Assembly: GCA_945913285.1 (NCBI GenBank)
Contig: CAMEDD010000011.1
Span: forward strand, 1-32,000
DNA: 32,000 nucleotides
Direction of reading: 5' to 3'
Source: Candidatus Sulfopaludibacter sp. SbA3
GTDB lineage: Bacteria > Pseudomonadota > Alphaproteobacteria > Caulobacterales > Hyphomonadaceae
Under the pieces are notes generated by a model. That model was given only the letters and a program-made list of their open reading frames with translations, searched no databases and was not told the origin of the DNA. The translations under genes and the position numbers were made by a program. Below are positions 2,389 through 30,361 of this stretch, one piece after another (within the stretch, counting starts at the first letter, position 1; each line of letters starts with the position of its first letter).

Positions 2389-2466
2389 AAACCGCCTCGT
2401 GTAGGCTGCCTTTCATACCCGGCAGAAGCGGGGTGAAACGCATAGGACCGTGAAGTAGTTTTGATT

Positions 2467-2739
2467 ATGAACATGCAGAATGCACGCCCGATGAGCGTCA
2501 AGGGCCCGGATGGCCAGACACTCACACTCGCCGATTTGCCCTCGCCCGGCATCTCCCGCTGGGTCACCCGCCGCAAGGCCGAAGTGGTCGCCGCTGTCCA
2601 GGGCGGTCTCCTCACCTGCCAGGATGCCTGCGAAAGCTACAATCTGACCGAAGAAGAATTCGAGGGCTGGGAGCGTCTGTACGCCCGCCACGGCTCGAAA
2701 GGCCTTCGTACGACCCGCCTTCAGCAGTACCGCCGTTAA
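2467..2739 (+). CDS. sciP: SciP, small CtrA-inhibitory transcription factor (DUF1153 family)
   Basis: …GPDGQTLTLADLPSPGISRWVTRRKAEVVAAVQGGLLTCQDACESYNLTEEEFEGWERLYARHGSKGLRTTRLQQYRR matches the SciP/DUF1153 signature as I remember it (RWVxRRKAEVVAAVxGG…GLRTTRxQQYR). The start is ambiguous among TTG 2461 and ATG 2467, 2473 or 2491. Confidence 0.85.
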   Translation: MNMQNARPMSVKGPDGQTLTLADLPSPGISRWVTRRKAEVVAAVQGGLLTCQDACESYNLTEEEFEGWERLYARHGSKGLRTTRLQQYRR

Positions 2740-2755
2740 CACGGTTTCAGGTTTG

Positions 2756-2770
2756 TTAACCCTGCCGTAA
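2756..2770 (+). promoter_or_regulatory. CtrA-box-like element TTAA-N7-GTAA upstream of the fliF-like operon
   Basis: TTAACCCTGCCGTAA has one mismatch to TTAA-N7-TTAA. A second GTTAAC at 2735-2740 overlaps the sciP stop. A -10-like GCTTCTAAC lies at 2777-2785, which would place the box over -35. Confidence 0.3.
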
Positions 2771-2780
2771 GGCCGGGCTT
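2769..2780 (+). repeat. 12-nt motif AAGGCCGGGCTT, copy 2 (upstream of the fliF-like gene)
   Basis: Exact copy of 2377-2388. Context is GTAAGGCCGGGCTTCTAAC, 51 bp before the ATG at 2831. Confidence 0.4.
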
Positions 2781-2830
2781 CTAACTTTCCGGGAATCTGC
2801 CGGCCCTCTGGCCGGTTCCGGAGGGATGGA

Positions 2831-3505
2831 ATGGCGTTTGGCAGCAGCACTCGGGCGGGAACGCCGGGATCGACGCGCTCGCTGGCGATGCTTATCTGCG
2901 CGCTGGCGCTGGGCCTTCTGGTCTGGCGCGGCGCGGCCGTGCTGACCGGCCCGGCCGCGCCTGCGCCGTCCAGCGCTGCAGAGGCCGCACTGGCCGATAT
3001 CGTCGCGCCCATTGCCGGGCCCGGCCTCTCCCGCCTCAGCGTGACCTTCAATGCCGGAGGCGGACGCACTATCCTGATTGTCTTGGATAAACGCGCTTCG
3101 GCGCAAATCCCGGAACTGGAACGCATCGCGGCCCTCGCCGCCGGGATCATACCCGAACAGGGCGACCGCCTGGTCATCGAAACCGTTACCTTTGCGGCCG
3201 GTATTCCCGGCCGCCCCACCCCGGAGCAGTGGGCCGAACTGATCGGCCTCGCCGTGCTTGCCCTTGCAGGGGGCGGCTTGATCGCCGTGTCCGGTACGCC
3301 TTTGACCGTTCAATCACCGGCCGCTCAATTAATCTCTGCGCCGGCTGCCGCGCCTGAACGCACGCCTGCGCAAACGCCTCGCGCGCCGCGTCCCGTGCCC
3401 GTCGCCCAGCCGACCGAAGCAGCCGCCGAGATTGCCCGGCGTGATCCGGCGCGCGCCGCCGCGGTCGTGCGCGGCTGGATGAACACGCGGGACGAGATCG
3501 CATGA
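2831..3505 (+). CDS. fliF: FliF-like M-ring protein, drastically shortened (224 aa)
   Basis: It sits immediately 5' of fliG with an ATGA overlap, and a GGAGGG RBS lies 5 nt before the ATG. Order of elements:
- TM1: LAMLICALALGLLVW.
- One RBM-like alpha-beta-beta-alpha-beta stretch: AALADIVAPIAGPGLSRLSVTF…RTILIVLDKRASAQIPELERIAALAAGIIPEQGDRLVIETVTF.
- TM2: LIGLAVLALAGGGLIAV.
- A Pro/Ala linker.
- A C-terminal DPARAAAVVRGWM helix resembling the FliG-binding tail of FliF.
Canonical FliF is far longer. Confidence 0.55.
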   Translation: MAFGSSTRAGTPGSTRSLAMLICALALGLLVWRGAAVLTGPAAPAPSSAAEAALADIVAPIAGPGLSRLSVTFNAGGGRTILIVLDKRASAQIPELERIAALAAGIIPEQGDRLVIETVTFAAGIPGRPTPEQWAELIGLAVLALAGGGLIAVSGTPLTVQSPAAQLISAPAAAPERTPAQTPRAPRPVPVAQPTEAAAEIARRDPARAAAVVRGWMNTRDEIA

Positions 3506-4416
3506 GCGCGTTGTCCAAAGCCGCGCCCCTGATGGCGCCCGGTCTTGCCCGTTCGGCCCGGCTGATGCGGGCGCTTGGCCCGGACGCCGCCGGGATCTGG
3601 AGCGAGCTCGACCCGCAGGAGGCCGAAGCGCTCAGCGCCGCGATGGAACGGCTCGGAGACGACCCCGCCAGCGAAGCGGATGCCTTGCGCCGTTTCACAG
3701 AGGCCCAACGCGCCCGCACCGGCATGGGCGTATGGGCTGAACTGTCGGCGCTCGATACCTCCGTCCTCGATGCCATCACCCGTCATGAACGCGCGCAAGT
3801 CGTGGCGCTGATCCTCTCGCGGCTGACAGGCGATGCTTCGGCGCGGCTGCTGCGCGCCTTGCCGTCATCCCTCGCCATCGAAGCAATGCAGCGGCTTCTG
3901 CACCTCGGCGAAGTTCACCCTGCCGCCATGGCCGGGCTCGAACAGCACCTGAAGGGCCGGGTCACGTCGATGGTCCGTGAGGGCTCGCAGGCCGGGATTG
4001 AAGGCATTGCGCTCATCTTCGACCGCCTCGATCCGCGCGCCGGAACCCTGTTCCTCGCTGCGCTCGAGAATGCCGAGCCGGGCGCCGGCGAAAAAGTCCG
4101 TTCCCTGATGTTCACCTTCGATGACCTGGGCACGCTGGATGCGGGCGGCATGCAAACGCTGCTGGCGACCGCTGATCGCGCAACGCTGGTCATCGCGCTC
4201 AAGGGCGCCAAGGAGACGACGTCTGCCGCCTTCTTCGCGAACGTCACGCAGCGCGCAGGCGACCTGCTGCGCGAAGAGATCGCGGCGCTCGGCCCCGTCC
4301 GCCGCAGCGAAGTGGACGCCGCCCGGACAGAACTCGTTGGCCTCGCGCGCCAGCTGATCAGCCGGGGCGAAATCCATGCCGGCAAGGATACCGATGAGGA
4401 CGAACTCGTCGAATGA
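3502..4416 (+). CDS. fliG: flagellar motor switch protein FliG
   Basis: 304 aa. Motifs present are MFTFDDL, VIALKGA, and the C-terminal torque helix QRAGDLLREEIAALGPVRRSEVDAARTELVGLARQLISRGEI, with conserved Arg and acidic-pair positions. The EHPQ-equivalent is degenerate (HERAQ). Confidence 0.9.
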   Translation: MSALSKAAPLMAPGLARSARLMRALGPDAAGIWSELDPQEAEALSAAMERLGDDPASEADALRRFTEAQRARTGMGVWAELSALDTSVLDAITRHERAQVVALILSRLTGDASARLLRALPSSLAIEAMQRLLHLGEVHPAAMAGLEQHLKGRVTSMVREGSQAGIEGIALIFDRLDPRAGTLFLAALENAEPGAGEKVRSLMFTFDDLGTLDAGGMQTLLATADRATLVIALKGAKETTSAAFFANVTQRAGDLLREEIAALGPVRRSEVDAARTELVGLARQLISRGEIHAGKDTDEDELVE

Positions 4417-4823
4417 CCGCGCGCGCCATCAAGACTGTCGCTCCTTTTGAGTTCCGGGCGGACTTCGGTCCGCAGCCCGAAGAAGCCGCGCCAGATGAAC
4501 CCGCGCGCGTCAGCTTCACAGGCGACGAAGTGGCCGGGCTGATTGCGCAGGTGAGGGCAGAAACGCTAGCGGAAGTTGCCCGGCGTCAGGCCGCGTCGGA
4601 GGCCGAACGACTGGCTGTACTGGCACGCGATCTGAGGGCTGCGCTCGGCGAGATCGTTCAGGTTATGAGCCATATCGAGGCTGTCCAGTTCGATCCCGTC
4701 ACCGAAGCGCGGCTGCGCGCCTCTGTTGAAACTGCCGCTGGCCGCATCATCCATGGACAGGCCGACCTGTTCGAGACACTCGCAGACACGTCTGCCTCAA
4801 AGCCGAAGGAAGGCACGACATGA
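4413..4823 (+). CDS. FliH/FlbE-like flagellar assembly protein (short, position-based call)
   Basis: 136 aa between fliG and fliN, with ATGA overlaps on both sides. It has an N-terminal FEFRADF motif like alphaproteobacterial FliH N-termini, then a coiled-coil-like Ala/Glu/Arg region. It occupies the flbE position of the Caulobacter fliF operon. Confidence 0.45.
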   Translation: MTARAIKTVAPFEFRADFGPQPEEAAPDEPARVSFTGDEVAGLIAQVRAETLAEVARRQAASEAERLAVLARDLRAALGEIVQVMSHIEAVQFDPVTEARLRASVETAAGRIIHGQADLFETLADTSASKPKEGTT

Positions 4824-5086
4824 CCGACAACGGTAACCCTGCTTTCCGCCGTATGCTGATGGATGTGCCTGTCCGTGTCGAAGTCGTGCTCGGCGACGTG
4901 CGCGTCTCGATGGATGAACTCCAGGCCCTGTCGCCGGGCGAAGTGCTGACCATGGAAAAGCAGACCGGCGAGCCCGTGGACATCTACGTCTCCGGCCGCC
5001 TGATCGCCCGCGGCAAGCTGGTGGTCGCCGACGGCGAACTGGGCGTCACGCTCACCGAAATCGTCGATGACCGCGCCGTGGCCTGA
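4820..5086 (+). CDS. fliN: flagellar motor switch protein FliN (SpoA domain)
   Basis: VPVRVEVVLGDVRVSMDELQALSPGEVLTMEKQTGEPVDIYVSGRLIARGKLVVADGELGVTLTEIV matches the FliN/SpoA consensus. Confidence 0.85.
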   Translation: MTDNGNPAFRRMLMDVPVRVEVVLGDVRVSMDELQALSPGEVLTMEKQTGEPVDIYVSGRLIARGKLVVADGELGVTLTEIVDDRAVA

Positions 5087-5145
5087 CGCGCCCTCGAAAT
5101 TAGTTACATCTGGAACTGATTTGCCGTTGGGCCTATAAGGCGCCC

Positions 5146-6018
5146 ATGGACACTGCCTTTGCCAGGAACCGGTATCACGACGCGCCCCGCGCAGCGGACT
5201 ATACGATTGACCAGGCCTGGGACACCTACAGCGCCGCCGAACATGACCGCTGGGACCGTCTCTTCCGCCGGCAGAGCGAGATCACCAAAGGCCGCGCCTG
5301 CGCCGCCGCGCTGGAGGCGATGGGCCGCCTTGAGCTGTCGCCCTCGGGCGTGCCGCACATGGGGCGCCTGTCGGGCCGGCTGGAAGCGATGACGGGCTGG
5401 CGGCTCGTGCCGGTGGCGGAGCTTGTGCCCGACGAGATCTTCTTCAATCACCTTGCCAATCGCCGCTTCCCGGCGGGCGCGTTCATCCGGCCGGAGGCGG
5501 AGTTCGATTACCTTCAGGAACCGGACATCTTCCATGACATCTTCGGGCATGTGCCGATGCTCGCCAATCCGGTCTTCGCCGACTTCATGCAGGCCTACGG
5601 GCAGGGCGGCCAGCGGGCCATGCGGCTCGGCCAGCTGCACAACCTTGCGCGGCTTTACTGGTACACCGTCGAGTTTGGACTCATTCAGGAGGCGGACGGT
5701 CTGCGCGTCTATGGCGCGGGCATCCTGTCGAGCCCGGACGAGACCGTCTTTGCCTTGGAAGACGCTAGCCCCAACCGGATCGGGTTTGATCTAAAGCGCC
5801 TGATGCGTACGAAATACATCATCGACGACTTCCAGCAGACCTATTTCGTCATCGACAGTTTCGAAGCGCTGCTGGAGGCCTGCTACCAGGATTTCGGCAA
5901 TGTCTATTCCGAGGTGAAGGACGCCGCGGACATTGAAGCGCAGGACCTGCTGGCGGATGACCGCGTGATCACGCGCGGCAGCCATGCCTATTTCGACGCG
6001 GGCGGCCGCAAGGCCTGA
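5146..6018 (+). CDS. phhA: phenylalanine 4-hydroxylase
   Basis: 290 aa. The aromatic amino-acid hydroxylase core is present: PDIFHDIFGHVPMLANPVFADFMQAYG (2-His iron site) and ARLYWYTVEFGLI. Confidence 0.9.
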   Translation: MDTAFARNRYHDAPRAADYTIDQAWDTYSAAEHDRWDRLFRRQSEITKGRACAAALEAMGRLELSPSGVPHMGRLSGRLEAMTGWRLVPVAELVPDEIFFNHLANRRFPAGAFIRPEAEFDYLQEPDIFHDIFGHVPMLANPVFADFMQAYGQGGQRAMRLGQLHNLARLYWYTVEFGLIQEADGLRVYGAGILSSPDETVFALEDASPNRIGFDLKRLMRTKYIIDDFQQTYFVIDSFEALLEACYQDFGNVYSEVKDAADIEAQDLLADDRVITRGSHAYFDAGGRKA

Positions 6019-6031
6019 TGGCGAGGCGGCG

Positions 6032-6478
6032 CTACTTGCGTCCCCGTGCCTGATCCGTACCCTGACGGGCGAGCCCGTCGGCGCGTTCGTTGCCTTCGTC
6101 GCCGGCATGACCCTTCACCCAGACCCAGGTGATCTCGTGGCGCGCGCAGGCCTCTTCCATCGCCGTCCACAAGTCCTGGTTCTTCACCGGCTTCTTGTCA
6201 GCGGTCTTCCAGCCATTGCGTTTCCAGCCCTTGATCCATTTGGTCAGGCCGTCCTTCACATAAGTGGAATCCACGTTCAGCGTGACCTTTGACGGCTTCT
6301 TGAGCGCGTTCAGCGCCTCGATCACGGCCATCATTTCCATGCGGTTATTGGTGGTCGCCGGATCGCCGCCGAACATTTCCTTTTCGTGGCCATTCCAGCG
6401 AATTAGCGCGCCCCAGCCTCCGGGGCCGGGATTGCCGCTGCACGCGCCATCGGTCCAGATTTCAATCATGTCGGTCAT
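6032..6478 (-). CDS. rnhA: ribonuclease HI
   Basis: [23 protein letters not shown]…[14 protein letters not shown]…VDSTYV…[15 protein letters not shown] is the RNase H DEDD signature. The track ORF extends to a TTG at 6514. I prefer the ATG at 6478 (MTDMIEIW…). Confidence 0.9.
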
Positions 6479-6520
6479 GCCGCGCGGGTTGGCCCGCTTC
6501 GGCGGAGGCGTCAAGACGGG

Positions 6521-7081
6521 TCAGAAGACGCTGAGGTCCACGTCCGTCAACTGCCGTGCCGGCGCGATGATGACGTGCATGAGAAAGCCGCAGAGCACGC
6601 CGGCCAAACCGCCGACCACTCCGCCCGCAACGAGCGCCCCGGCGGCAGCGCCCGCCCCGCCAAACAGCCCGAAAACACAGGTCGTCGCGCCCACCAGAAG
6701 CCCGCCCCATATCGCGCCCCAACGCAGATAGGGAAGGCGCGCGGTGATCCCCCGGTGCGGCATACGCCCGACCGACAGGCCGAGCGCCAGCGCCGCCGAT
6801 GGAACGGTGATGAAGAAGAGGAACAAGTTCAGCATCGACAGCTGCAGCGCCATTTCCACGCCGCCGAGGAAGCCGCCCTCGCCCACGGCAAGTCCGTCAA
6901 ATCCCATGATGCCGAAGGCCAGTTGCAACAGGCCGAGGCACACCGCGCCCATTAGCGTGACACAGAGGCAGGCAGCAAACGAGGAGACGAGCAGGGCAAG
7001 CCGGATCCGCTTGACCCGCTTCGGCCGCGGCGCCGTCGCATAGGCGGGAAGCTCGCTTTGGCCTTCCGCCGCGCCGGTCAT
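6521..7081 (-). CDS. hypothetical glycine-rich integral membrane protein
   Basis: 186 aa with about 5 hydrophobic helices and a Gly/Ala-zipper C-terminal half (GLFGGAGAAAGALVAGGVVGGLAGVLCG). Its start overlaps the thrB stop by 4 bp. No family was recognised. Confidence 0.6.
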   Translation of the reverse strand: MTGAAEGQSELPAYATAPRPKRVKRIRLALLVSSFAACLCVTLMGAVCLGLLQLAFGIMGFDGLAVGEGGFLGGVEMALQLSMLNLFLFFITVPSAALALGLSVGRMPHRGITARLPYLRWGAIWGGLLVGATTCVFGLFGGAGAAAGALVAGGVVGGLAGVLCGFLMHVIIAPARQLTDVDLSVF

Positions 7082-8075: not shown

Positions 8076-9575
8076 TTACGCAGTTTTGGAGAGCATGTCA
8101 CGCTCGAGCGTCTTGCCAGCGAGGAGGTAGTGGATCGCTGCCCAGCCATAGAGCGTTGCGAAGATCACGATCGACCATTGCAGACCGCGCGCGTTCGCAT
8201 CGTTGCATGCGGCGGCCACGTTGTCCTGGAGGCCGGTGACATCCTTGCAGAGCTGGAGCGTCAGCCCGAGATCATAGCCGCTCATCAGGACGGTTTTGAG
8301 GAACGTGGACAGGAAGCCGATCACCGTCGGGCCAAGGCCGATGCCGATAAGGTTCACCGCGAACAGCGTGATCGCAACCGCCGTCGCGCGCGTACGGCTG
8401 TCCACGACGCCTGCCGAGACGGCATACATCGGACCGAGGTAGAAGTAGTGCAGTGTTGCGGCCAGCATCAGCGGCGGGATCATCAGCGGTATGCTCGGCG
8501 CGAGGTAGCCGAGCCAGTAGAGAGGCACCGACAGGCCCATGCCGAGCGCCGGCATCCAGGACAGGGCGGTGGGGTAGCGCTTCGACAGCTTGTCTGCGAG
8601 GAAGCCCGACAGGAATACGCCGAGCGCGGCCATCAGGCCGAGCACCAGCGAGAAGATCAGCGCCGCCTCGGTCAGCGAGAGCCCGTGCGTTCGGCGCAGG
8701 AACGAGGTCGAGAATTGCGAGATGCCATAACCCGCGAAGGAGGCGATGGCGGCGCCGATCACCACATGCACATAGGTCGGTTTGCGCATCAGGCCGCCGA
8801 GCGCCGACAGGAATTTCTCCGGCGGGCCTTTCCGGTCGGCGCCGGGTGGGTCGCTATAGCCGCGCGGCGGTTCCTTGACGGTCAGGGCAAGGATCAACGC
8901 GAAGACAACACCAGGGAAACCGACAGCAAAGAACGCGATCCGCCAGCCTTCGAGGGACTGCCAGTCGATGAGGCCTTGCACCCAGGTCCAGCCCCAGTCG
9001 CCCAGCAGGGCGTGGACGTTGGCGCCGGTGACGTAGTCGTTGATAGGTCCGGCGGCGAGACCGGCGAACATCCCGCCGAGCGGAACGCCGAGGGCGTAGA
9101 TCGAAGCAGCCGTCGCGCGGCTGGTCGGTTTGAAATAATCGGCGATCACCGACTGCGCTGGCGGCGTGCAGCCCGCTTCACCCACGCCGACGAGCAGGCG
9201 GAAGATGAACAGCGTCGTGAAGCTTGTGGCAAAGCCGCACAGCACCGTCATTAGGCTCCACATGGCGAGCGAGACCATGATGATCAGCATACGGTTATAA
9301 CGCTCGGCAACTCGCGCGATGGGGATGCCGAGGGTCGTGTAGAAAATTGCGAAGGCGAGGCCGCCCAGCAGGCCCATGTGCCAGTCTTCGAGCTTCAGGG
9401 ATTCCTTCATCGGCTCGGTCAGGATCGCGAAGATCGAACGGTCGATGAAGTTGAAGATGTAAACAATGAGTAGCGAGAACAGAACGTAGCCGCGATAGGC
9501 TGGCGTTCCGTATCCGGTCTGATACCCGGGGAGGGTTTCGTCGGATGTCTGGCTAGAGGTGGCGGCGTCGGACAT
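8076..9575 (-). CDS. MFS transporter (Spinster-like subfamily), paralogue 1
   Basis: About 12 TM helices. MFS motifs are present: NFIDRSI…, GIPIARVAERYNR, LLVGVGEAGCTPPAQSVIADYF. I prefer the ATG at 9575, which follows GGAG plus a 6-nt spacer. The track ORF starts at a GTG at 9587. Confidence 0.85.
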   Translation of the reverse strand: MSDAATSSQTSDETLPGYQTGYGTPAYRGYVLFSLLIVYIFNFIDRSIFAILTEPMKESLKLEDWHMGLLGGLAFAIFYTTLGIPIARVAERYNRMLIIMVSLAMWSLMTVLCGFATSFTTLFIFRLLVGVGEAGCTPPAQSVIADYFKPTSRATAASIYALGVPLGGMFAGLAAGPINDYVTGANVHALLGDWGWTWVQGLIDWQSLEGWRIAFFAVGFPGVVFALILALTVKEPPRGYSDPPGADRKGPPEKFLSALGGLMRKPTYVHVVIGAAIASFAGYGISQFSTSFLRRTHGLSLTEAALIFSLVLGLMAALGVFLSGFLADKLSKRYPTALSWMPALGMGLSVPLYWLGYLAPSIPLMIPPLMLAATLHYFYLGPMYAVSAGVVDSRTRATAVAITLFAVNLIGIGLGPTVIGFLSTFLKTVLMSGYDLGLTLQLCKDVTGLQDNVAAACNDANARGLQWSIVIFATLYGWAAIHYLLAGKTLERDMLSKTA

Positions 9576-9614
9576 TCGGGTCTCCACGGGTAGTCAGGCA
9601 AGGGCAGGGCGGGT

Positions 9615-11108
9615 TCAGGTCGCAGGGCTCCAGCGGTCCTTCTGGTAGGTGCGGGCAGCGAGGAAATAGAAGAGGGCGGCGATGCCGAAGAAGAGCACCG
9701 TTGCGACCATCGATTGGCGCAGACCTTCCGCGTAGGCCGAGCAAAGCTCAGGGCCGGTCTCGCCGAGTTCGGCGATGCGGCCGGCGCAGAGCCCTGGATT
9801 GAACGTCGCGAACGCCTCTTCAAGGCCGGCCTTCTTGACGATGCCGCCCATGAAGGCGCTGCTCATCATGCCGGTGAAGAGCGGGCCGATGCCGTTGCCG
9901 ATCAGGCTGACGATGAGCAGCATGACCGAGACGGTCGTCGCGCGAGAGCGCGGGCTCACGATGGACGTGGATACCGTGTACTGAGCGCCGAGATAGGCAT
10001 AGTGCGCGATCGCCGCGATGACCCAGAGCCAGAAGGCCATGGTCAGCGTCGGGCTGAGAAAGGCGCCGACATAGGCGGGGATCGCAATCAGCAGGCCGAC
10101 ACCCGGCAGCCAGGCGGCGACCGAGGGAAAGCGGGGCGAAAGCTTCTCCGACAGGAAACCGCCGGCAAAGGTTCCGAACGCGGCAACGGCCGCAAGCGGC
10201 GCGCCGTAGTGCATCGCAGCCTCGGCCACGCTGACCCCATGCACGCGCATCAGGAACGGCGCCTGGAAACTGATCAGGCCGTAGCCGACGAACGCCACGA
10301 AGGCGGCCCCAAGCGATAGCGTCCAGAAGGTCGGCTTCCGGCTGAACTCCTTGAACGCTTCAAAGAAGCCGGCCTTGTCCGGGATGGACGACTTGGGGTC
10401 CGAGTAGCCGCGAGGCGGCTCACGAACGGTCAGCCAGAAGATAAGTGCCACGAGGATTCCCGGTACGCCGACGATCACGAAGACGAGGCGCCAGCCTTCC
10501 ACTTCCGCCCAGTTCACCCCGGTGAACAGGAATTCCAGGCCGATGGCATTCATCCAGCCGCCGAACGTCTCGCCCTTCAGGCTGGCGAGCTGGCCGCCGA
10601 AAAGCTGGGCCAGGACGCCGCCGAGGGTGACGCCCATCGAATAGATGCCAATGGCGTTGGCGCGGCTCTTGGGGGGATAATAGTCGGTGATGATGGAGTT
10701 GGCGGGCGGCGTGCAGCCGGCCTCGCCGATGGCGACGCCGATACGGAACACCAGGAGCCAGAGGAAACTGGCGGCAAGGCCGCAGAACACTGTCATCAGC
10801 GACCAGATGACGACACAGAGCCCGATGATCATCACCCGGTTCGACCGGTCGGCCCACATCGCAATCGGGATGCCCATGATCGCATAGAAAAGCGCAAAGG
10901 GCGGCCCCGTCAGAAGGCCCCATTGCGCATCGCTGAGCGAGAAAGTGTTGATGATCGGCTGAGCGACGACCGTGATCACGGTGCGGTCAATGAAGTTCAG
11001 CGTGTAAATAAGCGTCAGCGCGATGAGAACATAAGAGCGATAGCCCTTCGAGCCGTAGCCCGTGATGTGCCCGTTCGCGCTGTCAGCCGTGGCTGCAGTG
11101 GCCGTCAT
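9615..11108 (-). CDS. MFS transporter (Spinster-like subfamily), paralogue 2
   Basis: Same architecture and shared motifs as the neighbouring MFS gene (NFIDRTV, GEAGCTPPANSIITDYY, REPPRGYSDP). I prefer the ATG at 11108, preceded by GGGAGG. The track ORF extends to 11135. Confidence 0.85.
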   Translation of the reverse strand: MTATAATADSANGHITGYGSKGYRSYVLIALTLIYTLNFIDRTVITVVAQPIINTFSLSDAQWGLLTGPPFALFYAIMGIPIAMWADRSNRVMIIGLCVVIWSLMTVFCGLAASFLWLLVFRIGVAIGEAGCTPPANSIITDYYPPKSRANAIGIYSMGVTLGGVLAQLFGGQLASLKGETFGGWMNAIGLEFLFTGVNWAEVEGWRLVFVIVGVPGILVALIFWLTVREPPRGYSDPKSSIPDKAGFFEAFKEFSRKPTFWTLSLGAAFVAFVGYGLISFQAPFLMRVHGVSVAEAAMHYGAPLAAVAAFGTFAGGFLSEKLSPRFPSVAAWLPGVGLLIAIPAYVGAFLSPTLTMAFWLWVIAAIAHYAYLGAQYTVSTSIVSPRSRATTVSVMLLIVSLIGNGIGPLFTGMMSSAFMGGIVKKAGLEEAFATFNPGLCAGRIAELGETGPELCSAYAEGLRQSMVATVLFFGIAALFYFLAARTYQKDRWSPAT

Positions 11109-11367
11109 GTTGCATCGCCTCCCAGGGGAAAACACGCTTCTTTTGGCGCGTTTTGTTGTTGCATGACGGTAACGTCACCTCAGCGGCCTGCAAGCCTTAT
11201 CGTCAGGTCAGCGTCTGGCTTCAGAAATTTCACCCGGCAGGCGTGTTGAAACGGATGTCCGATGCCTTAGGGTTTTGTTTGCGAAGCCTCAGGCAGGAGA
11301 TGCTGCGTCGTGGATCTCGCCCGCAAGATGACCGCCCCCGGATCACTTTGCCTGACGAGACTTGCCT

Positions 11368-13549: not shown

Positions 13550-14878
13550 ATGATTGAACCGTTGGCACGCCTGTTGCGCCCGGCCGGGATCGCTGCGGCG
13601 CTGGTCCTGTCTTCGGCCTGCGCGGCCCATCCCAAGCCATCCGAGGCGGCGGCGCCTGCGCCTATCGAGGCTCCGCTTGCGCCAGCGCGGGTCTCCGACG
13701 AGGGGGTCAAGGCGCTTGAGGCGCGGATGACGCAGTTCGTCGCGGACGGCCAGGTCAAGGGCATTGCCACGCGCCTGATCGTCGATGGCAAGATTGTCAG
13801 CGACGTGACCGCCGGAATTCGCCGCGCGTCGGACAACAGCCCGGTCGCAGAAGATACGATTTTCCGAATCTATTCGATGTCCAAGCCGGTAACCGGCGTT
13901 GCCTTGATGATGCTGTATGAACAGGGCGCTTTCACGCTGGATGATCCGATTACCAAATTCGTGCCGGAGTTTGCAAGCCTCCGCGTGATGACGGGTGTGA
14001 CCCCCGAAGGCGCGCCAATTCTGACAGATCCCGAACACATCCCCACGATGCGCGAAGTGATGAGCCATACGGCGGGCTTCGCGTACGGCCTGTTCGGTGA
14101 CGATCCGGCCAACAGAGCTTTCCGCGAGCAGAAGATCCTGTCCTCGCCGGATCTTGATAAGTTCATCGGCAAGGTCGCCGAAGTGCCGCTCCTGTTCCAG
14201 CCCGGCAAGGCCTGGTCCTACAGCGCTTCAGTCGATGTTCAGGGCTATGTCGTTCAGAAAATCTCCGGCCAGTCCTTCGGGTCTTTTCTGGACACAAGGC
14301 TCTTTGGCCCGCTCGGCATGAAAGATACCGGGTTCTACGTTCCGGAGGCAGATGTTGACCGCTTCAGCGATGTTTTCGGATATACGGACAAGGCGCCCGG
14401 ACTCGTGCCTTTCTCCGTGCCTCAAGTCGCATTCCGGAAGGAGACGATCGGCATGGAGTCGGGGGGCGGCGGGCTCGTCTCCACCATGGATGACTATACC
14501 CGCTTCGCGCAGATGCTTTTGAATGAAGGCGAGTTAAACGACGTCCGCGTCTTAAAGCCTGAAACCGTTCGTCTCATGCGCACCAACATGTTGCCGCCCG
14601 GCGCGGCCCTCTTCTCGGACGGCTCCGGCGCCGCGCTCAACACCGCCGGTCTCGCTTTTGGTTTGAACCTCGGCCTGATTGAAGACCCGGCAGCCTCGGG
14701 GCGTCCGCAAGGCGCGGGGTCGTATTTCTGGGGCGGCGCGGCCGGCACCTGGTTCTGGGTCGATCCCCAGAACGACGTTATCTTCATCGGTATGATCCAG
14801 CGCTTTGCCACCGGCGGCCCGAACGTCGACTTCTCCGGAGAGTCGGGCAAGCTCGTGTACGGAGCGCTTCAGAAATGA
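13550..14878 (+). CDS. secreted serine hydrolase, beta-lactamase/transpeptidase-like fold
   Basis: It has a signal/lipoprotein-like N-terminus (LVLSSACAAHP) and an SxxK motif (YSMSKPVTG). GGAG lies 6 nt before the ATG. Confidence 0.85.
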   Translation: MIEPLARLLRPAGIAAALVLSSACAAHPKPSEAAAPAPIEAPLAPARVSDEGVKALEARMTQFVADGQVKGIATRLIVDGKIVSDVTAGIRRASDNSPVAEDTIFRIYSMSKPVTGVALMMLYEQGAFTLDDPITKFVPEFASLRVMTGVTPEGAPILTDPEHIPTMREVMSHTAGFAYGLFGDDPANRAFREQKILSSPDLDKFIGKVAEVPLLFQPGKAWSYSASVDVQGYVVQKISGQSFGSFLDTRLFGPLGMKDTGFYVPEADVDRFSDVFGYTDKAPGLVPFSVPQVAFRKETIGMESGGGGLVSTMDDYTRFAQMLLNEGELNDVRVLKPETVRLMRTNMLPPGAALFSDGSGAALNTAGLAFGLNLGLIEDPAASGRPQGAGSYFWGGAAGTWFWVDPQNDVIFIGMIQRFATGGPNVDFSGESGKLVYGALQK

Positions 14879-24001: not shown

Positions 24002-25381
24002 TCAGGGCTGGCAGGCCGGCTCGTCTTTCTTCTTCTTGCCGAACAGGCCAGCGCCCGGAATCTGGGACATCAGCGCCTCCTTCACGATGTCGCCCGCTTC
24101 CGGCGGCGGGCATTTCGGCAGGTCGCTGCCCGCATCCGCCATGCCTTCCGCAGCCATCCCGGCGGACATGTTGTCCGAGAGGTTGCCAACCATGAGGTTC
24201 GCAACCGATTTGACGCGAACCCGCGCAGTCCATTCCTGATCCCAGGCCACTTTCGGATCGGCGGGCCGCTCCGGATGCACGATGTTGAGTTCCCGCCCAT
24301 AGGCAATGCCGCGTGCGTTCACGAACATCGCATCGGCAAAGATGCCCGCCGGAATCTCGCACGATGTTTTCGACGTCGGCAGGATTGCCTTTTCCTTCAG
24401 GTGCTTTTCCTGGTTCGCATTCGAGAGATAGTTCACGAGACCGTCACCAGCTTCCGGCACTTCGGACGAGCTCCACTGCGTGAAGGTCATCTCTTCCGGT
24501 TGTCCGCCGCTTCCTTCCTTCATCGCCATGCCGCTGGCATTCACGAAATAGGCTGAGGCCTGCGCCAGGGGCGACCAGGCGAGCGTGATCACGGAGGCTT
24601 TGTCGCCGCTGGAGCCGAGCCCGAGGTCCGGCAGGAAGTCCTGCGCCGCGCGGATCGAGAAGCTGAGGCTCGCCGGCAGTCCCGCGCCCGTCACCGTATG
24701 CGTTCCCGCGAGCGAAGCATCCTTCGGCACGCGCTTGGAATTGTCCTTGTTCGGCCAGAAACTGGAATTCCGGTTCGACGTCGCACCCCGGTCGATCTCG
24801 ACCCGGGAGCGGAGCGCCTCGCCCCAGACGTCCACGCCCTTTTTGCTGTCGAACTCAATGGTCTGGACGTTCGGCTGGCCGGGGCGCACCTTCGCGCCGC
24901 AGCCCCAATAGGTCAGAATCGTGATCTTCATCTTGCCTTCGGGCGCCTCGGGCGTGGGCTCGTCGAACGGCGTACGGCCGCTGACTTTTGCCGGTGGGCG
25001 AAGCGGCAGGCTCGCGCCGAGCTTCACCGTTTTCGGGATCGCCTGATCGGCCTTCACCGTGCCGGACGTGCGCGCATCAAAGATCGCGATGTCCACCCGC
25101 TTGCCATCCTGGCCCATGTTGGCCGCGCCAAACCAGTTGTCACCATTGCCAAAGGCGCTGCCGAAGCCGGGGTCTCCGCCGCCCATCATGGCGCCGAGGC
25201 CCATCAGGCCGCCGCCCTGCATCGGTTGCCCCGTGGAGATGTCCATCCAGTAATTGACCGGCGCCGGATTGACGACCTGCTTGGCCGCACCCCCAGCGCC
25301 CTGCGCCGCCGAAGGTATCGCCAGCGCCGCCACCGCGCAGGCGGCCAATGCCAGTTTCCGAGTTGTCGATGTCGTTCCCAT
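24002..25381 (-). CDS. secreted protein of unknown function (459 aa)
   Basis: The ATG at 25381 gives MGTTSTTRKLALAACAVAALAIPSAAQG, a signal peptide. Next is a Gly/Met-rich stretch (GGGLMGLGAMMGGGDPGFGSAFGNGDNWFG), then a long mixed beta-type region and a C-terminal GKKKKDEPACQP. GC3 is high. No domain was recognised. Confidence 0.6.
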   Translation of the reverse strand: MGTTSTTRKLALAACAVAALAIPSAAQGAGGAAKQVVNPAPVNYWMDISTGQPMQGGGLMGLGAMMGGGDPGFGSAFGNGDNWFGAANMGQDGKRVDIAIFDARTSGTVKADQAIPKTVKLGASLPLRPPAKVSGRTPFDEPTPEAPEGKMKITILTYWGCGAKVRPGQPNVQTIEFDSKKGVDVWGEALRSRVEIDRGATSNRNSSFWPNKDNSKRVPKDASLAGTHTVTGAGLPASLSFSIRAAQDFLPDLGLGSSGDKASVITLAWSPLAQASAYFVNASGMAMKEGSGGQPEEMTFTQWSSSEVPEAGDGLVNYLSNANQEKHLKEKAILPTSKTSCEIPAGIFADAMFVNARGIAYGRELNIVHPERPADPKVAWDQEWTARVRVKSVANLMVGNLSDNMSAGMAAEGMADAGSDLPKCPPPEAGDIVKEALMSQIPGAGLFGKKKKDEPACQP

Positions 25382-25481
25382 GTGCGTCCACCCATGACTT
25401 ATGGTCCCCCGACCGTCCCGGCAGGAAGATAGCATGGCGGCGCTGCCTGTCACGCGGATTGGCGCACAGGCGTGGCGGGCC

Positions 25482-26606
25482 TCAGGTGAAGGCGACGTTC
25501 AGCCAGCTCGGGCGCACATAGGTCTCGCCGAGATCGCGCGCGACCAGCTTGTGGGCGATCGTGCCCTGATCGACCGTCAGGCCATTGGCCAGGTGCCGGT
25601 TCGCATTGATCGCGCCGCGCGTGCCCTTGCCCGCGATCTGCATCACGAAGGGCAGGGTGGCATTGTTCAGCGCGTAAGTCGACGTGCGCGGCACGGCGCC
25701 CGGCATGTTCGCGACGCAATAGTGAAGTATTCCGTCCACGTCATAAATCGGGTCTTCGTGCGTCGTCGCGTGGCTCGTCTCGAAACAGCCGCCCTGGTCG
25801 ATCGCAATGTCCACCAGCACTGCGCCGGGCTTCATCGTCTTCAGCTGCTCGCGGCTGACGAGCTTCGGCGCCGAAGCGCCGGGGATCAGCACGGCGCCAA
25901 TCACGAGGTCAGCCTCCTTGATCGCTTCGGCCAGCGCATGCGCGGTCGAGTACATCGTCTTGAGGCTGCCGCGGAACTGCTCGTCGAGCTGGCCGAGGCG
26001 CACATTGTTCCGGTCGAAGACGGTCACGTCCGCGCGCATGCCGACGGCGATCTCCGCTGCGTGGGTTCCGGACACGCCGCCGCCGATGATCACCACTTTC
26101 GAGGGCGCCACGCCCGGCACGCCGCCGAGCAGGATGCCGCGTCCGCGCTTCGTGCGCATCAGTGCCCAGGCCGCCAGCTGCATCGACATGCGCCCCGCCA
26201 CCTGGCTCATCGGGCGCAGCAGCGGCAGGCCGCCCTCAGCGTCGGTGACGGTTTCATAAGCGATCGCGAGGCAGCCCGATTTCATCAGGCCCTTTGCCTG
26301 CACCGGATCCGGCGCAAGGTGCAGGTAGGTGAACAGGGTATGCTCCGGCGTCAGGCGCGCGGTCTCTTCCGGCTGCGGCTCCTTCACCTTCACGATCAGT
26401 TCGCTGCCGCCGAACACCGCTGCGGCGTCCGGCGCGATCTGCGCGCCGACAGCGAGATAGGCGTCATTGTTGAAACCGGAGTTCACGCCCGCATCCGATT
26501 GCACCAGCACGCTGTGGCCCGCGCGGACCAGTTCGCCCACGCTTTCGGGTGTCAGGCCGACACGCGATTCCTGCTTCTTGATTTCGGTTGGAACGCCAAT
26601 GCGCAT
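25482..26606 (-). CDS. ald: alanine dehydrogenase
   Basis: MRIGVPTEIKKQESRVGLTPESVGELVRAGHSVLVQSDAG… is followed by the Rossmann motif VVIIGGGVSGTHAA. A GGAGAGG RBS is present. Confidence 0.9.
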   Translation of the reverse strand: MRIGVPTEIKKQESRVGLTPESVGELVRAGHSVLVQSDAGVNSGFNNDAYLAVGAQIAPDAAAVFGGSELIVKVKEPQPEETARLTPEHTLFTYLHLAPDPVQAKGLMKSGCLAIAYETVTDAEGGLPLLRPMSQVAGRMSMQLAAWALMRTKRGRGILLGGVPGVAPSKVVIIGGGVSGTHAAEIAVGMRADVTVFDRNNVRLGQLDEQFRGSLKTMYSTAHALAEAIKEADLVIGAVLIPGASAPKLVSREQLKTMKPGAVLVDIAIDQGGCFETSHATTHEDPIYDVDGILHYCVANMPGAVPRTSTYALNNATLPFVMQIAGKGTRGAINANRHLANGLTVDQGTIAHKLVARDLGETYVRPSWLNVAFT

Positions 26607-26700
26607 TGTGCCTCTCCAGGAGGAAAGTCCATGCGTATAGCGTCGCGCGCGCGCAATTTCCAGCCCTCAGCCGGCCGAACTCCCATGGCGAGCCCGCCAA

Positions 26701-26735
26701 CAGAAATCCCCCCTCCGGCGAACCGAAGGGAGGAC
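26701..26735 (-). terminator. possible terminator of the porin gene
   Basis: On the minus strand, CCUCC…(12-nt loop containing CUUCGG)…GGAGG is followed by GGGGAUUUCUGUU. The stem is short and the U-tract imperfect. Confidence 0.3.
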
Positions 26736-26782
26736 AGTGTGCCAGGCACCAGAGTGCCGGCCAAACGCTACAGATCCGTCGA

Positions 26783-27448
26783 TCAGAAGTATTTCGAGAT
26801 CATCACGACGAAGTTCTGGTCGGCCGTGTCACCTGCGATGGCGTCGTCGATGTCAGTGTCGCTGTACTTAAGCGTCAGGTCGAAGAGTTCGAAGGCGTAT
26901 GCACCGCCGAGCGACCAGTTGGTGTAGTCGCCGCCGCCGTCGAAGCTGGCATTGCCAACGCTCGCCAGACCTTTGAGCTTGTCGGTGAACGCGTAAGCGC
27001 CAGTACCTTCAACATAGGTGTTCTTGTTGTCCGGGTCGTAATAGACCGTTGCGCCGCCCGAGAGGGCGTCCGCGGTGAAGCCGAGGCCGGCCTTCAGTTC
27101 GGTAAAGTTCAGATCGTCTTCACCAGGGTAAAGATAGGTGATCACGCCAACGTCCCAGGACAGGTTCTCGGTGAAAGCGCCACGGAAGCCGCCATAGAGG
27201 TCAACTTCAATATCGGCGTCAGAGCCGTAATCGACATTCGAGGCCCAGCCACCGGCATAGAACGAGCCGTTGGTGTAATCGACGCCGGCCTGGAGGGCTG
27301 CGCCGTTGTCGGTCTGCGAGACACCCCGCCAGACATAGTCGTTCGTGACAGCGACGTTGTAGGACACTGCGCCTTGAGCTTGAGCGGTTCCCGCTGCGGC
27401 GATAAGCGCGGCGGCAAGGAGGCTGGCCCGGGAGAGATTGTTTTTCAT
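26783..27448 (-). CDS. TorF-family (TIGR02001/Gcw_chp-like) putative outer-membrane porin
   Basis: It has a signal peptide (ASLLAAALIAAAGTAQA) and N-terminal VAVTNDYVWRGVSQTDNGAALQAGVDY. It also shows alternating beta-strand periodicity and a C-terminal aromatic residue (…ISKYF). Confidence 0.75.
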   Translation of the reverse strand: MKNNLSRASLLAAALIAAAGTAQAQGAVSYNVAVTNDYVWRGVSQTDNGAALQAGVDYTNGSFYAGGWASNVDYGSDADIEVDLYGGFRGAFTENLSWDVGVITYLYPGEDDLNFTELKAGLGFTADALSGGATVYYDPDNKNTYVEGTGAYAFTDKLKGLASVGNASFDGGGDYTNWSLGGAYAFELFDLTLKYSDTDIDDAIAGDTADQNFVVMISKYF

Positions 27449-27617
27449 AAAAGAGACCTTGCTTCTGTATCCACGCTCCGGATCGAGCGGCGAGGTCAGA
27501 CGACCCCAGTCCGCGTTCGATTTCGATGGGAAGCGTAGCGTTAACTGGCCTTTTGAGCGAACTGCGCCGGGCTTTTGGGCAGGCCGGATGCGGCATGCCC
27601 GTGCTTTGTGCGATGCA

Positions 27618-29149: not shown

Positions 29150-30361
29150 TTATTCTGCGTCCACCGCCGCCTGTACCGACTTGTAGAATGCCTTGCGTTC
29201 CTCGAACTCACCGTCCCTCAGGCCGAGCGCGGTTGTCCAGTTGGCGTTGGACGCAATCACCAGACGGCGCGCGGGGTCGATGAAGATGCCCTGTCCGAAA
29301 ATGCCGTCGGCCTCGAAGGCGCCCGCGTCCTTGGTCCACCACTGGAACCCGTAGCCTTCACCGGCCAAGCCATAATCGGCCTGCTTCAACGTCGCGGTTG
29401 CCAGCCAGTCCGCCGGCACGACAGGCCCAGCGGGCGTTGCGGCGCCGTCCAGGATGAACTGCCCGAATCGGGCGAAATCGCGCGTGGTTGCCTGTATGCA
29501 GCAACCGCTGATCTCATGCCCGTCCGCGCCGAGCAGCCAACTGGCATCCTGTTCCATGCCGAAGGGCGCCCAGATTTTCTCTGACAGGTAATCGGCCACC
29601 GTCTTGCCAGTCGCAGAGCTCACCAGCACGCCGATGAGATTTGTCTCGCCGGTGGAGTAGTTCCACACTTCGCCTGGCGGATGCGCCCGCCCAAGGCTGC
29701 GCATGTAAGATACCGTGCCGTTCACGCCGGGCCCGGGCACATGCAGGTCGAATTGCGCAACGTTGGAGTTCGGGTCTTCATAATCCTCGTTCCAGGCCAC
29801 GCCCGAGGTCATCGTAAGCAGCTGATCGATGGTCACATCGTCATAGGGCGAGCCCTTGAGATCGGGGATGTAGGTGCTGACCTTGTCACTGAGGCTGTTG
29901 ATATGGCCGTCGGCAATCGCGGCGCCGACCAGGGTCGAGGTCAGCGATTTTGCCACCGAGAAACTGGTCCAGCGGCCATGATCGGTAAAGTCGTTGCCAT
30001 AGCGCTCCAGCCGGATCTTGCCGTCCTGCACGATGATCAGTGCGGCGGCGTTCTGGCTTTCCATGTAGGCATCAAGGTTAATCGTTGCGCCGAGATCGAG
30101 GGAGGCGCCTTCGGGCAGGGGATGGACTGCCGCGCCTTTCTTGATGGGCCGCGATTCGATGATCAGCGGCAGCCGGTCCATCATCCGGAACGCGGCGTCG
30201 CGTTGCGGCACGGACCAGAACAATACGCCGCGGCCCTCGGGCGGATGGGACGCCAGCGCCCGCCAGTCCGGCCCGATGAGCATCCAGCCCGCGCCCCCCG
30301 TAATCACGAGCGCGGCCAACACGGTGCCGATCCGGCGCAGCCAACGGTTTGACGTGCTCAT
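29150..30361 (-). CDS. serine hydrolase, beta-lactamase/transpeptidase-like fold (membrane-anchored or secreted)
   Basis: It has an N-terminal anchor (IGTVLAALVITGGAGWMLI) and an SxxK motif (FSVAKSLTS). I prefer the ATG at 30361, preceded by AGGGGG. The track ORF starts at a TTG at 30379. Confidence 0.8.
   Translation of the reverse strand: MSTSNRWLRRIGTVLAALVITGGAGWMLIGPDWRALASHPPEGRGVLFWSVPQRDAAFRMMDRLPLIIESRPIKKGAAVHPLPEGASLDLGATINLDAYMESQNAAALIIVQDGKIRLERYGNDFTDHGRWTSFSVAKSLTSTLVGAAIADGHINSLSDKVSTYIPDLKGSPYDDVTIDQLLTMTSGVAWNEDYEDPNSNVAQFDLHVPGPGVNGTVSYMRSLGRAHPPGEVWNYSTGETNLIGVLVSSATGKTVADYLSEKIWAPFGMEQDASWLLGADGHEISGCCIQATTRDFARFGQFILDGAATPAGPVVPADWLATATLKQADYGLAGEGYGFQWWTKDAGAFEADGIFGQGIFIDPARRLVIASNANWTTALGLRDGEFEERKAFYKSVQAAVDAE

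Follow-up and report, generated by a model that had tools for sequence, protein, structure and literature searches.

The flagellar MS-ring (membrane and supramembrane ring) protein FliF, as known from Salmonella (PDB 6SD3, 7CG7 and 8FTF), measures about 530–590 amino acids (aa). It forms a hairpin of two transmembrane helices (TM1 and TM2), with a domain of the third ring-building motif (RBM3) type in front of TM2, and further contains a disordered linker and a C-terminal helix of the form DP..A..(V/I)R.W(M/L); its gene directly precedes fliG, with which it is coupled. Here we describe a protein that shares all these traits in 224 aa. Its gene, fliF', stands next to sciP in a stretch of 32,000 nucleotides (the window) from Candidatus Sulfopaludibacter sp. 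SbA3, a member of the Hyphomonadaceae (GenBank assembly GCA_945913285.1, contig CAMEDD010000011.1, positions 1 to 32,000), and opens a compact module fliF'-fliG'-fliH'-fliN', where primes denote shortened forms. Unlike canonical FliF, FliF' has neither RBM1 and RBM2 (together the SctJ/PrgK-like region) nor the beta-collar insertion of RBM3, and it remains under the Pfam and NCBIfam thresholds. In Hyphomonas neptunium, going by gene-order equivalence, it coexists with a normal FliF.

The closest described arrangement is the operon found in Caulobacter (CC_0903 to CC_0908; locus numbers from S8 Data of PMC7200025), Bradyrhizobium, Rhodopseudomonas and other Alphaproteobacteria, which we call type A. 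It has the same gene order and the same sciP neighbour; the proteins of the Hyphomonas group are closest to those of type A, the position of a CtrA-type box resembles that of its class II promoter, and genes similar to flhF and flhG lie downstream in some members. The differences are of size and of context. Type-A proteins measure about 540, 360, 207 and 115 aa, against 224, 304, 136 and 88 aa in the window; the module has no flbD, unlike the class II operon; and in Hyphomonas the sciP operon is no longer the sole source of FliF, FliG and FliN.

A naturally shortened FliF exists in Chlamydiaceae (about 330 aa, a FliF-FliG fusion; bioRxiv 10.1101/023564). It resembles FliF' in its two TM helices, its collar-less periplasmic part and the small number of flagellar genes kept with it; unlike FliF', it retains RBM2 and a second RBM, carries a fused FliG-M-like domain and belongs to a non-flagellated host with an injectisome (bioRxiv 10.1101/023564). 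The module, for its part, combines a single RBM3 core and a free tail of the FliG-binding type with separate genes for FliG, FliH' and FliN', in a flagellated lineage. Other membrane-anchored proteins with an extracytoplasmic RBM, namely SpoIIIAG/SpoIIIAH of the sporulation channel and SctJ/EscJ/PrgK and SctD of injectisomes, are more distant: EscJ and PrgK appear among structural matches after FliF, yet these proteins lack a tail for FliG binding and are anchored by one TM helix or a lipid, and SpoIIIAG keeps a collar-like insertion. FliF' is nearest to the RBM3 of FliF by both sequence profile and fold.

A second FliG in a flagellated bacterium is also known: FliG1 of Borrelia burgdorferi is not the main rotor protein and is encoded by a lone gene. 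FliG', unlike FliG1, is encoded in a coupled operon together with a membrane anchor of its own (FliF'), FliH' and FliN'. We found no description of this module in the searched literature on short, truncated or paralogous FliF, or on sciP-linked fliF/fliG of Hyphomonadaceae. In databases its proteins are unnamed, 'hypothetical' or generic FliF/YscJ (COG); FliG' orthologues appear as 'FliG C-terminal domain-containing protein' (NCBI) or 'flagellar motor switch protein FliG' (JGI).

Results

FliF' retains a single ring-building motif

Three independent lines, namely sequence profiles, profile-profile alignment and structure, identify FliF' as a true FliF homologue devoid of RBM1, RBM2 and beta-collar, and hence reduced to one ring-building motif. 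Its kinship becomes clear only with exhaustive profile search, profile-profile alignment and structural comparison. The Pfam model YscJ_FliF_C gives a sub-threshold match over residues 83–121 (E = 0.3; 11.9 bits where 23.8 are required), and NCBIfam has no matching model. YscJ_FliF, which covers the RBM1/RBM2 region, matches neither the window's protein nor any of 19 family members. With a model of 50 alphaproteobacterial FliF sequences, simple hmmsearch reaches only 9.3 bits. Pfam profiles had been put forward in the original prediction as a check on the module: the FliG and FliN neighbours exceed their cutoffs and FliF' does not.

We then compared a profile of close FliF' homologues with 1.84 billion representative proteins in an exhaustive hidden Markov model (HMM) search, which gave 193 matches, more than 100 of them 200–240 aa long. 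The short relatives are followed by proteins of 494–572 aa, called FliF wherever they are named (E from 4e-7 to 5e-5). These long FliFs match through their C-terminal third only: in one example (E = 4.4e-7), residues 65–216 of the query pair with residues 353–530.

Profile-profile alignment (hhalign) of 109 members of the short family with 50 full-length alphaproteobacterial FliFs gave a probability of 98.1% (E = 6.9e-14) and covers canonical FliF from RBM3 onward only. Residues 50–72 of FliF' correspond to alpha1-beta1 of RBM3, and residues 79–121 to beta2-alpha2-beta3. The beta-collar, an insertion of about 85 residues between beta1 and beta2, is absent: its place is taken by a five-residue NAGGG hairpin (residues 74–78). 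RBM1 and RBM2 have no counterpart, with merely about ten residues between TM1 and alpha1 of RBM3. TM2 pairs with canonical TM2, and the last 25 residues or so with the FliF C-terminus.

The AlphaFold model of FliF' has a mean pLDDT (predicted local distance difference test) of 83.8, rising to 95–98 in the periplasmic domain. Helices 13–38 and 131–154 give a two-TM topology, with both termini cytoplasmic, and flank a folded domain with the succession alpha (49–62), beta (67–73), beta (79–86), alpha (87–104) and beta (113–119). In the cytoplasmic part, a disordered linker (155–195) precedes two terminal helices (196–223). All 13 top Foldseek matches in the PDB are FliF S-ring/RBM3 structures; EscJ, PrgK and KH-like folds come next.

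The tail motif ARRDPARAAAVVRGWM aligns with the extreme C-terminus of Salmonella FliF, DPRVVALVIRQWM, and with alphaproteobacterial FliFs. All full-length members of the family that we inspected carry some variant of it, and residues P206, R214 and W216 are conserved in at least 90% of 109 sequences. Across the family, conservation is highest in the strands, both TM helices and the tail, and lowest in the linker and N-terminus; the motif and its helices are the best conserved cytoplasmic part. By its resemblance to canonical tails, that of FliF' is predicted to bind FliG.

The original prediction, made from the DNA letters, had read this protein as a FliF derivative with one ring-building motif and a tail of the FliG-binding type, in the order TM1, RBM, TM2, linker and C-terminal helix. 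The alignment, the fold comparison and the model bear this out, and alignment to full-length FliF identifies the missing parts as RBM1, RBM2 and the beta-collar.

The companion proteins are trimmed at domain boundaries

FliG' passes all three Pfam models (FliG_N 41.8, FliG_M 47.9 and FliG_C 117.8 bits), falls short of the TIGR00207 equivalog cutoff (136.8 against 226.7) and is matched by FliGs of the PDB at about 1e-42. The motifs MFTFDDL, ALKGA and QRAGDLLREEI, from which the gene had been recognized as fliG, are present. We compared FliG', FliH' and FliN' with their syntenic counterparts at 52 outgroup loci. FliG' is homologous to syntenic FliGs over its full length (hhalign probability 100%), except that its FliG_N domain misses about 35 internal and about 15 N-terminal residues. 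In the structure model, the N-domain is reduced to three helices. The middle and C-terminal domains of FliG' are intact.

The residues of E. coli FliG that contact the stator we take to be K264, R281, D288, D289 and R297. FliG' has K234, R251, E258, E259 and R267 with identical spacing (17, 7, 1 and 8), and across 42 orthologues these five charges are invariant or conserved in at least 90%. The region of FliG_M that corresponds to the EHPQR motif, a candidate FliM-binding site, reads E96-R-A-Q...R131 in the window. Its glutamate is at least 90% conserved and R131 is invariant; most aligned orthologues have the consensus ERPQ.

FliN' is a FliN/SpoA protein, as first proposed (PF01052, FliMN_C: 75.8 bits for a cutoff of 23.8, 2.5e-21; TIGR02480: 86.0 against 84.05). 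It consists of the SpoA core only, and about 28 N-terminal residues of syntenic FliN are missing (hhalign 99.7%).

FliH' (136 aa) has no Pfam or NCBIfam match. The outgroup gene of about 207 aa between fliG and fliN encodes FliH (PF02108, 25.4 bits for a cutoff of 24.1), and hhalign of ingroup FliH' (that of Hyphomonas, Henriciella and related metagenome-assembled genomes, MAGs) with this outgroup FliH gives a probability of 88.6% (E = 2.7e-6) over FliH residues about 5–141. In a small database, a single type-A FliH is also matched by the ingroup profile, at 7.6e-8. FliH' thus probably keeps the N-terminal F.F..DF motif and the helical region; the C-terminal globular half is absent, the Pfam FliH domain (outgroup residues 65–179) being without counterpart. 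In FliH, the N-terminal part binds FliN and the C-terminal globular half binds the ATPase FliI. The description of this protein as FliH/FlbE-like would thus hold for the N-terminal half of FliH and not for the C-terminal one.

In all 50 outgroup loci that cover the region (from Bradyrhizobium, Rhodopseudomonas, Afipia, Pleomorphomonas, Pelagibacterium, Magnetospirillum, Acetobacteraceae, a Paracoccaceae MAG and others), a full-length FliF (533–596 aa) precedes fliG (337–372 aa), which is followed by FliH (about 207 aa) and FliN (105–159 aa); sciP was detected upstream of the full-length fliF in 38 outgroup loci. The window's operon is the syntenic counterpart of this Caulobacter-like operon, sciP-fliF-fliG-fliH-fliN, with every protein shortened. 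The ingroup profiles score type-A proteins above those of a single representative cluster of a second type, B, described below: 266 against 164 bits for FliG, 92 against 68 for FliN, 55 against 23 for FliF and 26 against 2 for FliH'. Altogether, all four structural proteins of the Hyphomonas/Henriciella lineage have been trimmed at domain boundaries. We hold this identity and history of the module with high confidence.

The reduced module is ancient and under purifying selection

The five-gene block formed by sciP and the module is found again at 35 related loci from Hyphomonas, Henriciella and MAGs (two pairs have identical protein sequences). Their source genomes include isolates, MAGs of numerous studies and assemblies at chromosome level. 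The short fliF encodes 207–239 aa at these loci. A word-indexed search found 87 FliF' homologues of 137–238 aa (most of them 208–238 aa) with 42–100% identity; those with a name are nearly all from Hyphomonas, and one is labelled Acidobacteria. In the exhaustive profile search, the short family comprises more than 100 clusters at 50% identity. We also scanned genomes with FliG as anchor and analysed the best 80 loci with local HMMs. Loci of Hyphomonas, Henriciella and related MAGs that cover the region all have sciP, with an F gene of 212–236 aa, FliG of 302–318, FliH' of 116–139 and FliN of 84–89 aa; sciP is upstream of the module in every ingroup locus reaching that far, and the four-nucleotide overlap between F and G genes is usually kept.

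The short FliF has diverged to about 21–30% identity with its architecture unchanged. The very divergent members (L086–L088; GCA_039033955.1, ERZ25074695 and GCA_964492485.1) have a FliF' about 21–29% identical to that of the window in the same five-gene block. Their surroundings differ: upstream, mnmA takes the place of the APH/P5CR/YbjN neighbourhood, and L088 has a chpT-like gene (HPTransfase), a response regulator and cheR just upstream of the module.

Pairwise ratios of nonsynonymous to synonymous substitution (dN/dS, Nei-Gojobori) are below 1 for all genes: 0.03–0.19 for FliG', 0.02–0.17 for FliN', 0.08–0.25 for FliH', 0.14–0.36 for FliF' and 0.04–0.13 for sciP. The module is under purifying selection, and with 35 related loci its recurrence goes far beyond chance. 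Of the two views offered in the original prediction, a module still under selection and an early snapshot of flagellar loss, the range of 0.02–0.36 over the four module genes and the block kept across 35 loci uphold the former; the latter does not agree with the same ratios or with a reduced form that is ancient.

The only lesions seen are in two loci. In H. oceanitis SCH89 (L028, 9280–9956), a frameshift in the linker leaves a 217-aa open reading frame (ORF) with an aberrant end; the conserved tail is encoded by a further ORF of 67 aa, which overlaps fliG. Possible causes of the frameshift are an error of sequencing, a natural split of the gene or a pseudogene confined to this locus. In the MAG of Hyphomonas sp. 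34-62-18 (L012, 11325–12395), fliN' is fused in frame to phhA in a 356-aa ORF without the last FliN residues and about the first 19–20 residues of PhhA, either a real fusion or an assembly deletion.

A decaying, functionless relic of flagellar loss would fit the origin of the module as the remnant of a once complete type-A operon, and could account for these two occasional lesions. Against it stand dN/dS values of 0.02–0.36 in all genes, the persistence of lengths and ATGA coupling despite the divergence of FliF', deletions exactly at domain boundaries that leave a high-confidence fold, the conserved upstream motif described below, and the transcription of HNE_1391–1393 in H. neptunium. We regard a relic as very improbable for the window, and for the family it is already refuted.

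An assembly or annotation artefact, with about 0.9 kb of fliF collapsed or lost, has virtually no chance of being correct. Nothing but the unusual length speaks for it; a short gene is found in all 35 related loci, in isolates, MAGs and chromosome-level assemblies alike, and one collapse cannot make two separate, domain-exact deletions. The reduced form is ancient, neither a recent deletion nor an artefact. We likewise rejected a mis-called start codon or a recent deletion as the cause of the short fliF, given the ORF limits, the recurrence, the dN/dS values and the alignment: the 224-aa ORF cannot be longer, because it was called from the first start codon after an in-frame stop.

Hyphomonas neptunium also has a complete flagellar island

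H. neptunium's motility island, HNE_0239–0276, is described in the supplements of Leicht et al. 2020 (PMC7200025). It contains fliL (HNE_0241), a 'flagellar M-ring protein FliF' of about 533 codons (HNE_0242, 232121–233720), a hypothetical protein of about 200 aa (HNE_0243), FliN (HNE_0244), FliP (HNE_0245), a COG1536 protein of FliG type (HNE_0246, about 360 aa) and a COG1868 protein of FliM type (HNE_0252), as well as flgI, flgL, flgK, flgE, motB and motA (PMC7200025). HNE_0243 is predicted to be FliH-like. The island's order, fliL and then divergent fliF-fliH-fliN-fliP-fliG, is identical to that of an annotated Sulfitobacter plasmid cluster, and we call it type B. Separate from the island lie HNE_1390 (sciP), HNE_1391 (hypothetical), HNE_1392 ('putative FliG') and HNE_1393 (hypothetical) (PMC7200025), which by gene order and annotation belong to the family of the window's module.

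With full-length FliF, FliG, FliM and FliN in the island, the window-type module represents a reduced second set rather than the sole MS-ring. Hyphomonas would thus run its polar flagellum from a complete type-B island and keep a reduced type-A rotor module beside sciP, a picture drawn from H. neptunium. The FliG-anchored scan returned, among the best 80 loci, only the sciP-linked locus of each Hyphomonas genome, and the plasmid collection has no match to FliF'. The coexistence of the two sets rests on the H. neptunium literature because no canonical Hyphomonas fliF was obtained as sequence.

The original prediction had implicitly treated the 224-aa protein as the only FliF, a premise that fails at least in H. 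neptunium, with HNE_0242 and its separate island. A miniature MS-ring of a working flagellum, built from FliF' as the organism's sole FliF, would be consistent with the position of the gene, its good ribosome-binding site and translational coupling to fliG, and the tail of FliG-binding type. It would also agree with the absence of other flagellar genes from the window and from the 10 kb around ingroup modules, a point on which the window alone cannot decide. H. neptunium, however, does have a canonical fliF outside the sciP locus, in an island with full-length FliF, FliG, FliM, FliN, FliP and rod, hook and stator genes, whose fliL mutant served as the non-motile control (PMC7200025). Furthermore, FliF' is devoid of the parts around export gate and proximal rod, and FliH' of the FliI-binding half. 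A sole FliF therefore seems highly unlikely.

In S8 Data (PMC7200025), the Caulobacter homologue of island FliN (HNE_0244) and FliG (HNE_0246) is given as 'NA'; island FliF, FliP, FliI and MotB have one. FliG' and FliN' linked to sciP and closer to the FliG and FliN of Caulobacter would fit these entries, which is conjecture only.

Upstream motif and neighbouring genes

The spacer between sciP and fliF' contains a CtrA-box-like motif (Table 1), the only match to TTAA-N7-TTAA with at most one mismatch in the 32-kb window. A motif TTAA-N7-(T/G)T(A/T)N is found in 29 of 30 distinct orthologous spacers (L001–L033), mostly 63–78 nucleotides (nt) before the start of the short fliF, whereas shuffled spacers average 0.2 and never exceed 4; seven distinct spacers have the perfect TTAA-N7-TTAA. 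CtrA may bind at this site. SciP itself passes its NCBIfam equivalog model, and we saw no terminator-like site between sciP and fliF' in the window.

In H. neptunium, HNE_1391–1393 are transcribed, with RNA-seq counts several-fold below those of island fliF, fliG and fliN, and they rise 1.5–2.1-fold in a divJ deletion (PMC7200025).

Downstream of fliN', most ingroup lineages have flhF-like (SRP54) and flhG-like (ParA) genes as well as ctrA-like genes for a response regulator; type-A operons at 8–9 outgroup loci likewise have flhF- and flhG-like genes after them. At L003 (11625–18666) these genes are followed by patatin, selD, selU and then RNase H. In the window's clade (window 5087–6514), only phhA stands between fliN' and RNase H, and a block of about 6 kb, the ctrA-like gene among it, has either moved or is missing at this position.

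The coordinates of the locus (Table 1) agree in full with those first read from the letters: sciP, a spacer of 91 bp, a 224-aa ORF with a good ribosome-binding site, and four plus-strand ORFs coupled by ATGA stop/start overlaps at 3502, 4413 and 4820. The early remark that FliG, the FliH-like protein and FliN are at the short end of their families extends to all four proteins, each shorter than its syntenic counterpart. As had been noted, phhA (Biopterin_H) and not flbD comes directly after fliN'. No further flagellar gene was found in the 32-kb window, whose remainder is metabolic and transport genes, nor closer than 10 kb to the module at any ingroup locus.

Table 1 Features of the sciP-linked module and its surroundings, in window coordinates
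Feature	Coordinates	Strand	Basis and remarks
sciP (CtrA inhibitor, DUF1153)	2461..2739	+	NCBIfam NF051866 CtrAInhibSciP, 130.5 bits for a cutoff of 100; Pfam DUF1153, 9.6e-38
CtrA-box-like motif TTAACCCTGCCGTAA in the sciP-fliF' spacer	2756..2770	+	TTAA-N7-TTAA with one mismatch
GGAGG ribosome-binding site of short fliF	2820..2824	+	Read from sequence; 6 nt before the ATG at 2831
fliF' (224 aa)	2831..3505	+	ORF and FliF homology
FliF' TM1 (aa 13–38)	2867..2944	+	AlphaFold helix, pLDDT about 80–92; among the better conserved regions
FliF' RBM3 core (aa 49–119, alpha-beta-beta-alpha-beta)	2975..3187	+	pLDDT 95–98; hhalign to RBM3; NAGGG hairpin in place of the collar
FliF' TM2 (aa 131–154)	3221..3292	+	AlphaFold helix; aligned to the canonical TM2 region
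FliF' disordered Pro/Ala-rich linker (aa 155–195)	3293..3415	+	Low pLDDT, no secondary structure; least conserved, indel-rich
FliF' C-terminal helices with ARRDPARAAAVVRGWM (aa 196–223)	3416..3499	+	FliG-binding-tail type; aligned to FliF C-termini
fliG' (304 aa)	3502..4416	+	Pfam FliG_N, FliG_M and FliG_C
fliH' (136 aa)	4413..4823	+	Operon position and profile alignment to FliH
fliN' (88 aa)	4820..5086	+	FliMN_C, TIGR02480

Elsewhere in the window, a hydrophobic 186-aa ORF without Pfam match (6521–7081, minus strand) lies between the genes for RNase H and an APH-family kinase; a 186-aa gene has the equivalent position in L003 and L004, and it may encode a conserved membrane protein. Two tandem paralogous genes for MFS/OATP-like transporters follow on the minus strand (8076–9587 and 9615–11135, 503 and 506 aa). 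There are two genes of the beta-lactamase family (serine hydrolases; 13550–14878, plus strand, and 29150–30379, minus strand), and large ORFs without Pfam match at 24002–25453, 25401–26927, 26588–27538 and 30873–31946, some of which overlap on opposite strands, so that not all of them may be coding.

Discussion

What the module has kept is a membrane hairpin, an RBM3 core, a tail of FliG-binding type, a matching remnant of the FliG N-domain, the domains FliG_M and FliG_C including the stator-contact charges, the SpoA core and, probably, the N-terminal half of FliH. Lost are RBM1, RBM2, the collar and FliH's C-terminal half. According to solved MS-ring structures and the literature, it is these parts that enclose the export gate, secure the proximal rod and dock FliI. 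With RBM1/RBM2, collar and FliI-binding FliH domain missing, there is no place for an export gate, a rod or the ATPase, and the module is thus not a second flagellum.

We propose that FliF' inserts into the inner membrane as a hairpin and probably oligomerises through its RBM3 core, presenting its tail to the shortened N-domain of FliG'. FliG' would carry FliN', and FliH' would be bound to FliN'. The result would be a membrane-anchored, C-ring-like (cytoplasmic ring-like) FliG/FliN platform, probably ring-shaped by virtue of RBM3. PDB entry 8FTF, titled a 33-mer of Salmonella RBM3, suggests that an RBM3 ring without RBM1/RBM2 is possible.

Such a membrane-anchored FliG/FliN platform under CtrA control is the most likely nature of the module. 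Our best guess is an accessory platform, with timing by CtrA/SciP and a link to the development of pole or flagellum. Candidate roles would be positioning, together with the FlhF/FlhG encoded downstream in most lineages, or an assembly or checkpoint signal. A precedent for FliF/FliG as a signalling platform comes from Campylobacter jejuni, where MS-ring and rotor are reported to be needed for activation of the FlgSR two-component system (PMC3760246). As a tentative assignment we put forward a polar platform of its own, serving in positioning, as a checkpoint or in signalling; a contribution to the island-encoded motor is a weaker candidate, and the remainder is left to other or mixed roles. 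A 'hat-like' structure of H. neptunium related to the flagellum's type III secretion system (PMC9380563) was considered as a lead and rejected: it occurs in many species without the module, and the one of Helicobacter pylori is independent of FliF/FliG.

Several points weigh against this picture as a whole. The assignment of HNE_1391–1393 to the module family goes by gene order and annotation; the type-B island is established for H. neptunium alone, via the literature; and the scores that separate type A from type B come from one type-B cluster. A CtrA chromatin immunoprecipitation (ChIP) peak in H. neptunium is assigned to the adjacent sciP, and none to HNE_1391–1393 (PMC7200025). Ring formation by a collar-less RBM3, binding of the tail to FliG' and binding of FliH' to FliN' are steps that we infer. 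The conserved stator-contact charges of FliG' are hard to explain in a static platform and fit instead a FliG' that meets MotA, with a role in or at the motor; the module also has no FliM of its own.

These charges, (nearly) invariant in a protein that is among the most constrained of the module, are what would be expected if FliG' and FliN' were isoforms in the C-ring of the island motor, or stacked on it, with FliF' as a membrane anchor, chaperone or extra ring that delivers FliG' to the MS-ring or holds it there. The FliM-binding E..Q...R positions, largely kept in FliG', point the same way; any motor-like activity would depend on island parts, as genes for FliM, rod and export are missing from the module, and the tail motifs of FliF' and canonical FliF are so similar that cross-binding is conceivable. 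On the other hand, FliF' without beta-collar and RBM1/2 cannot occupy the place of a normal MS-ring protomer, the loss of about 50 residues in the FliG' N-domain alongside the reduction of FliF' suggests a private FliF'-FliG' interface, and in H. neptunium the RNA-seq counts of the module are several-fold under those of island fliF, fliG and fliN. On balance we consider motor isoforms unlikely, if worth keeping in view.

It is also possible, with a still smaller probability, that the module is its own mini rotor: a rod-less and export-less assembly of an RBM3-only FliF' ring with FliG' and FliN' that still engages MotAB-type stators. It would then serve not for propulsion, but as a sensor, a brake or a polar signalling or positioning device with FlhF/FlhG and the CtrA/SciP circuit. 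Stator engagement of this kind would explain the conservation of the torque-helix charges.

We moderately favour the complete reading of the module as a trimmed descendant of a type-A operon, a second, partial rotor set and a membrane-anchored FliG/FliN accessory platform. It is less striking than a sole MS-ring, yet as a flagellar rotor core kept alone it is uncommon, ancient and open to testing.

If the module is functional, as its conservation implies, it offers a natural minimal FliF, a two-TM hairpin with just an RBM3 core and a tail of FliG-binding type, which co-evolved with a shortened FliG N-domain. It would be a simple system for asking how little of FliF suffices for a ring and for FliG templating, whether the RBM3 core alone sets ring size, and what FliG and FliN do away from export and rod. 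Experiments are within reach in H. neptunium, which is genetically tractable and has had its motor imaged by cryo-electron tomography: by gene order, its genes HNE_1391–1394 correspond directly to those of the module. The module also illustrates an evolutionary route: of two ancient flagellar systems in Alphaproteobacteria, one was cut back a domain at a time to its rotor/switch core, and the other took over motility.

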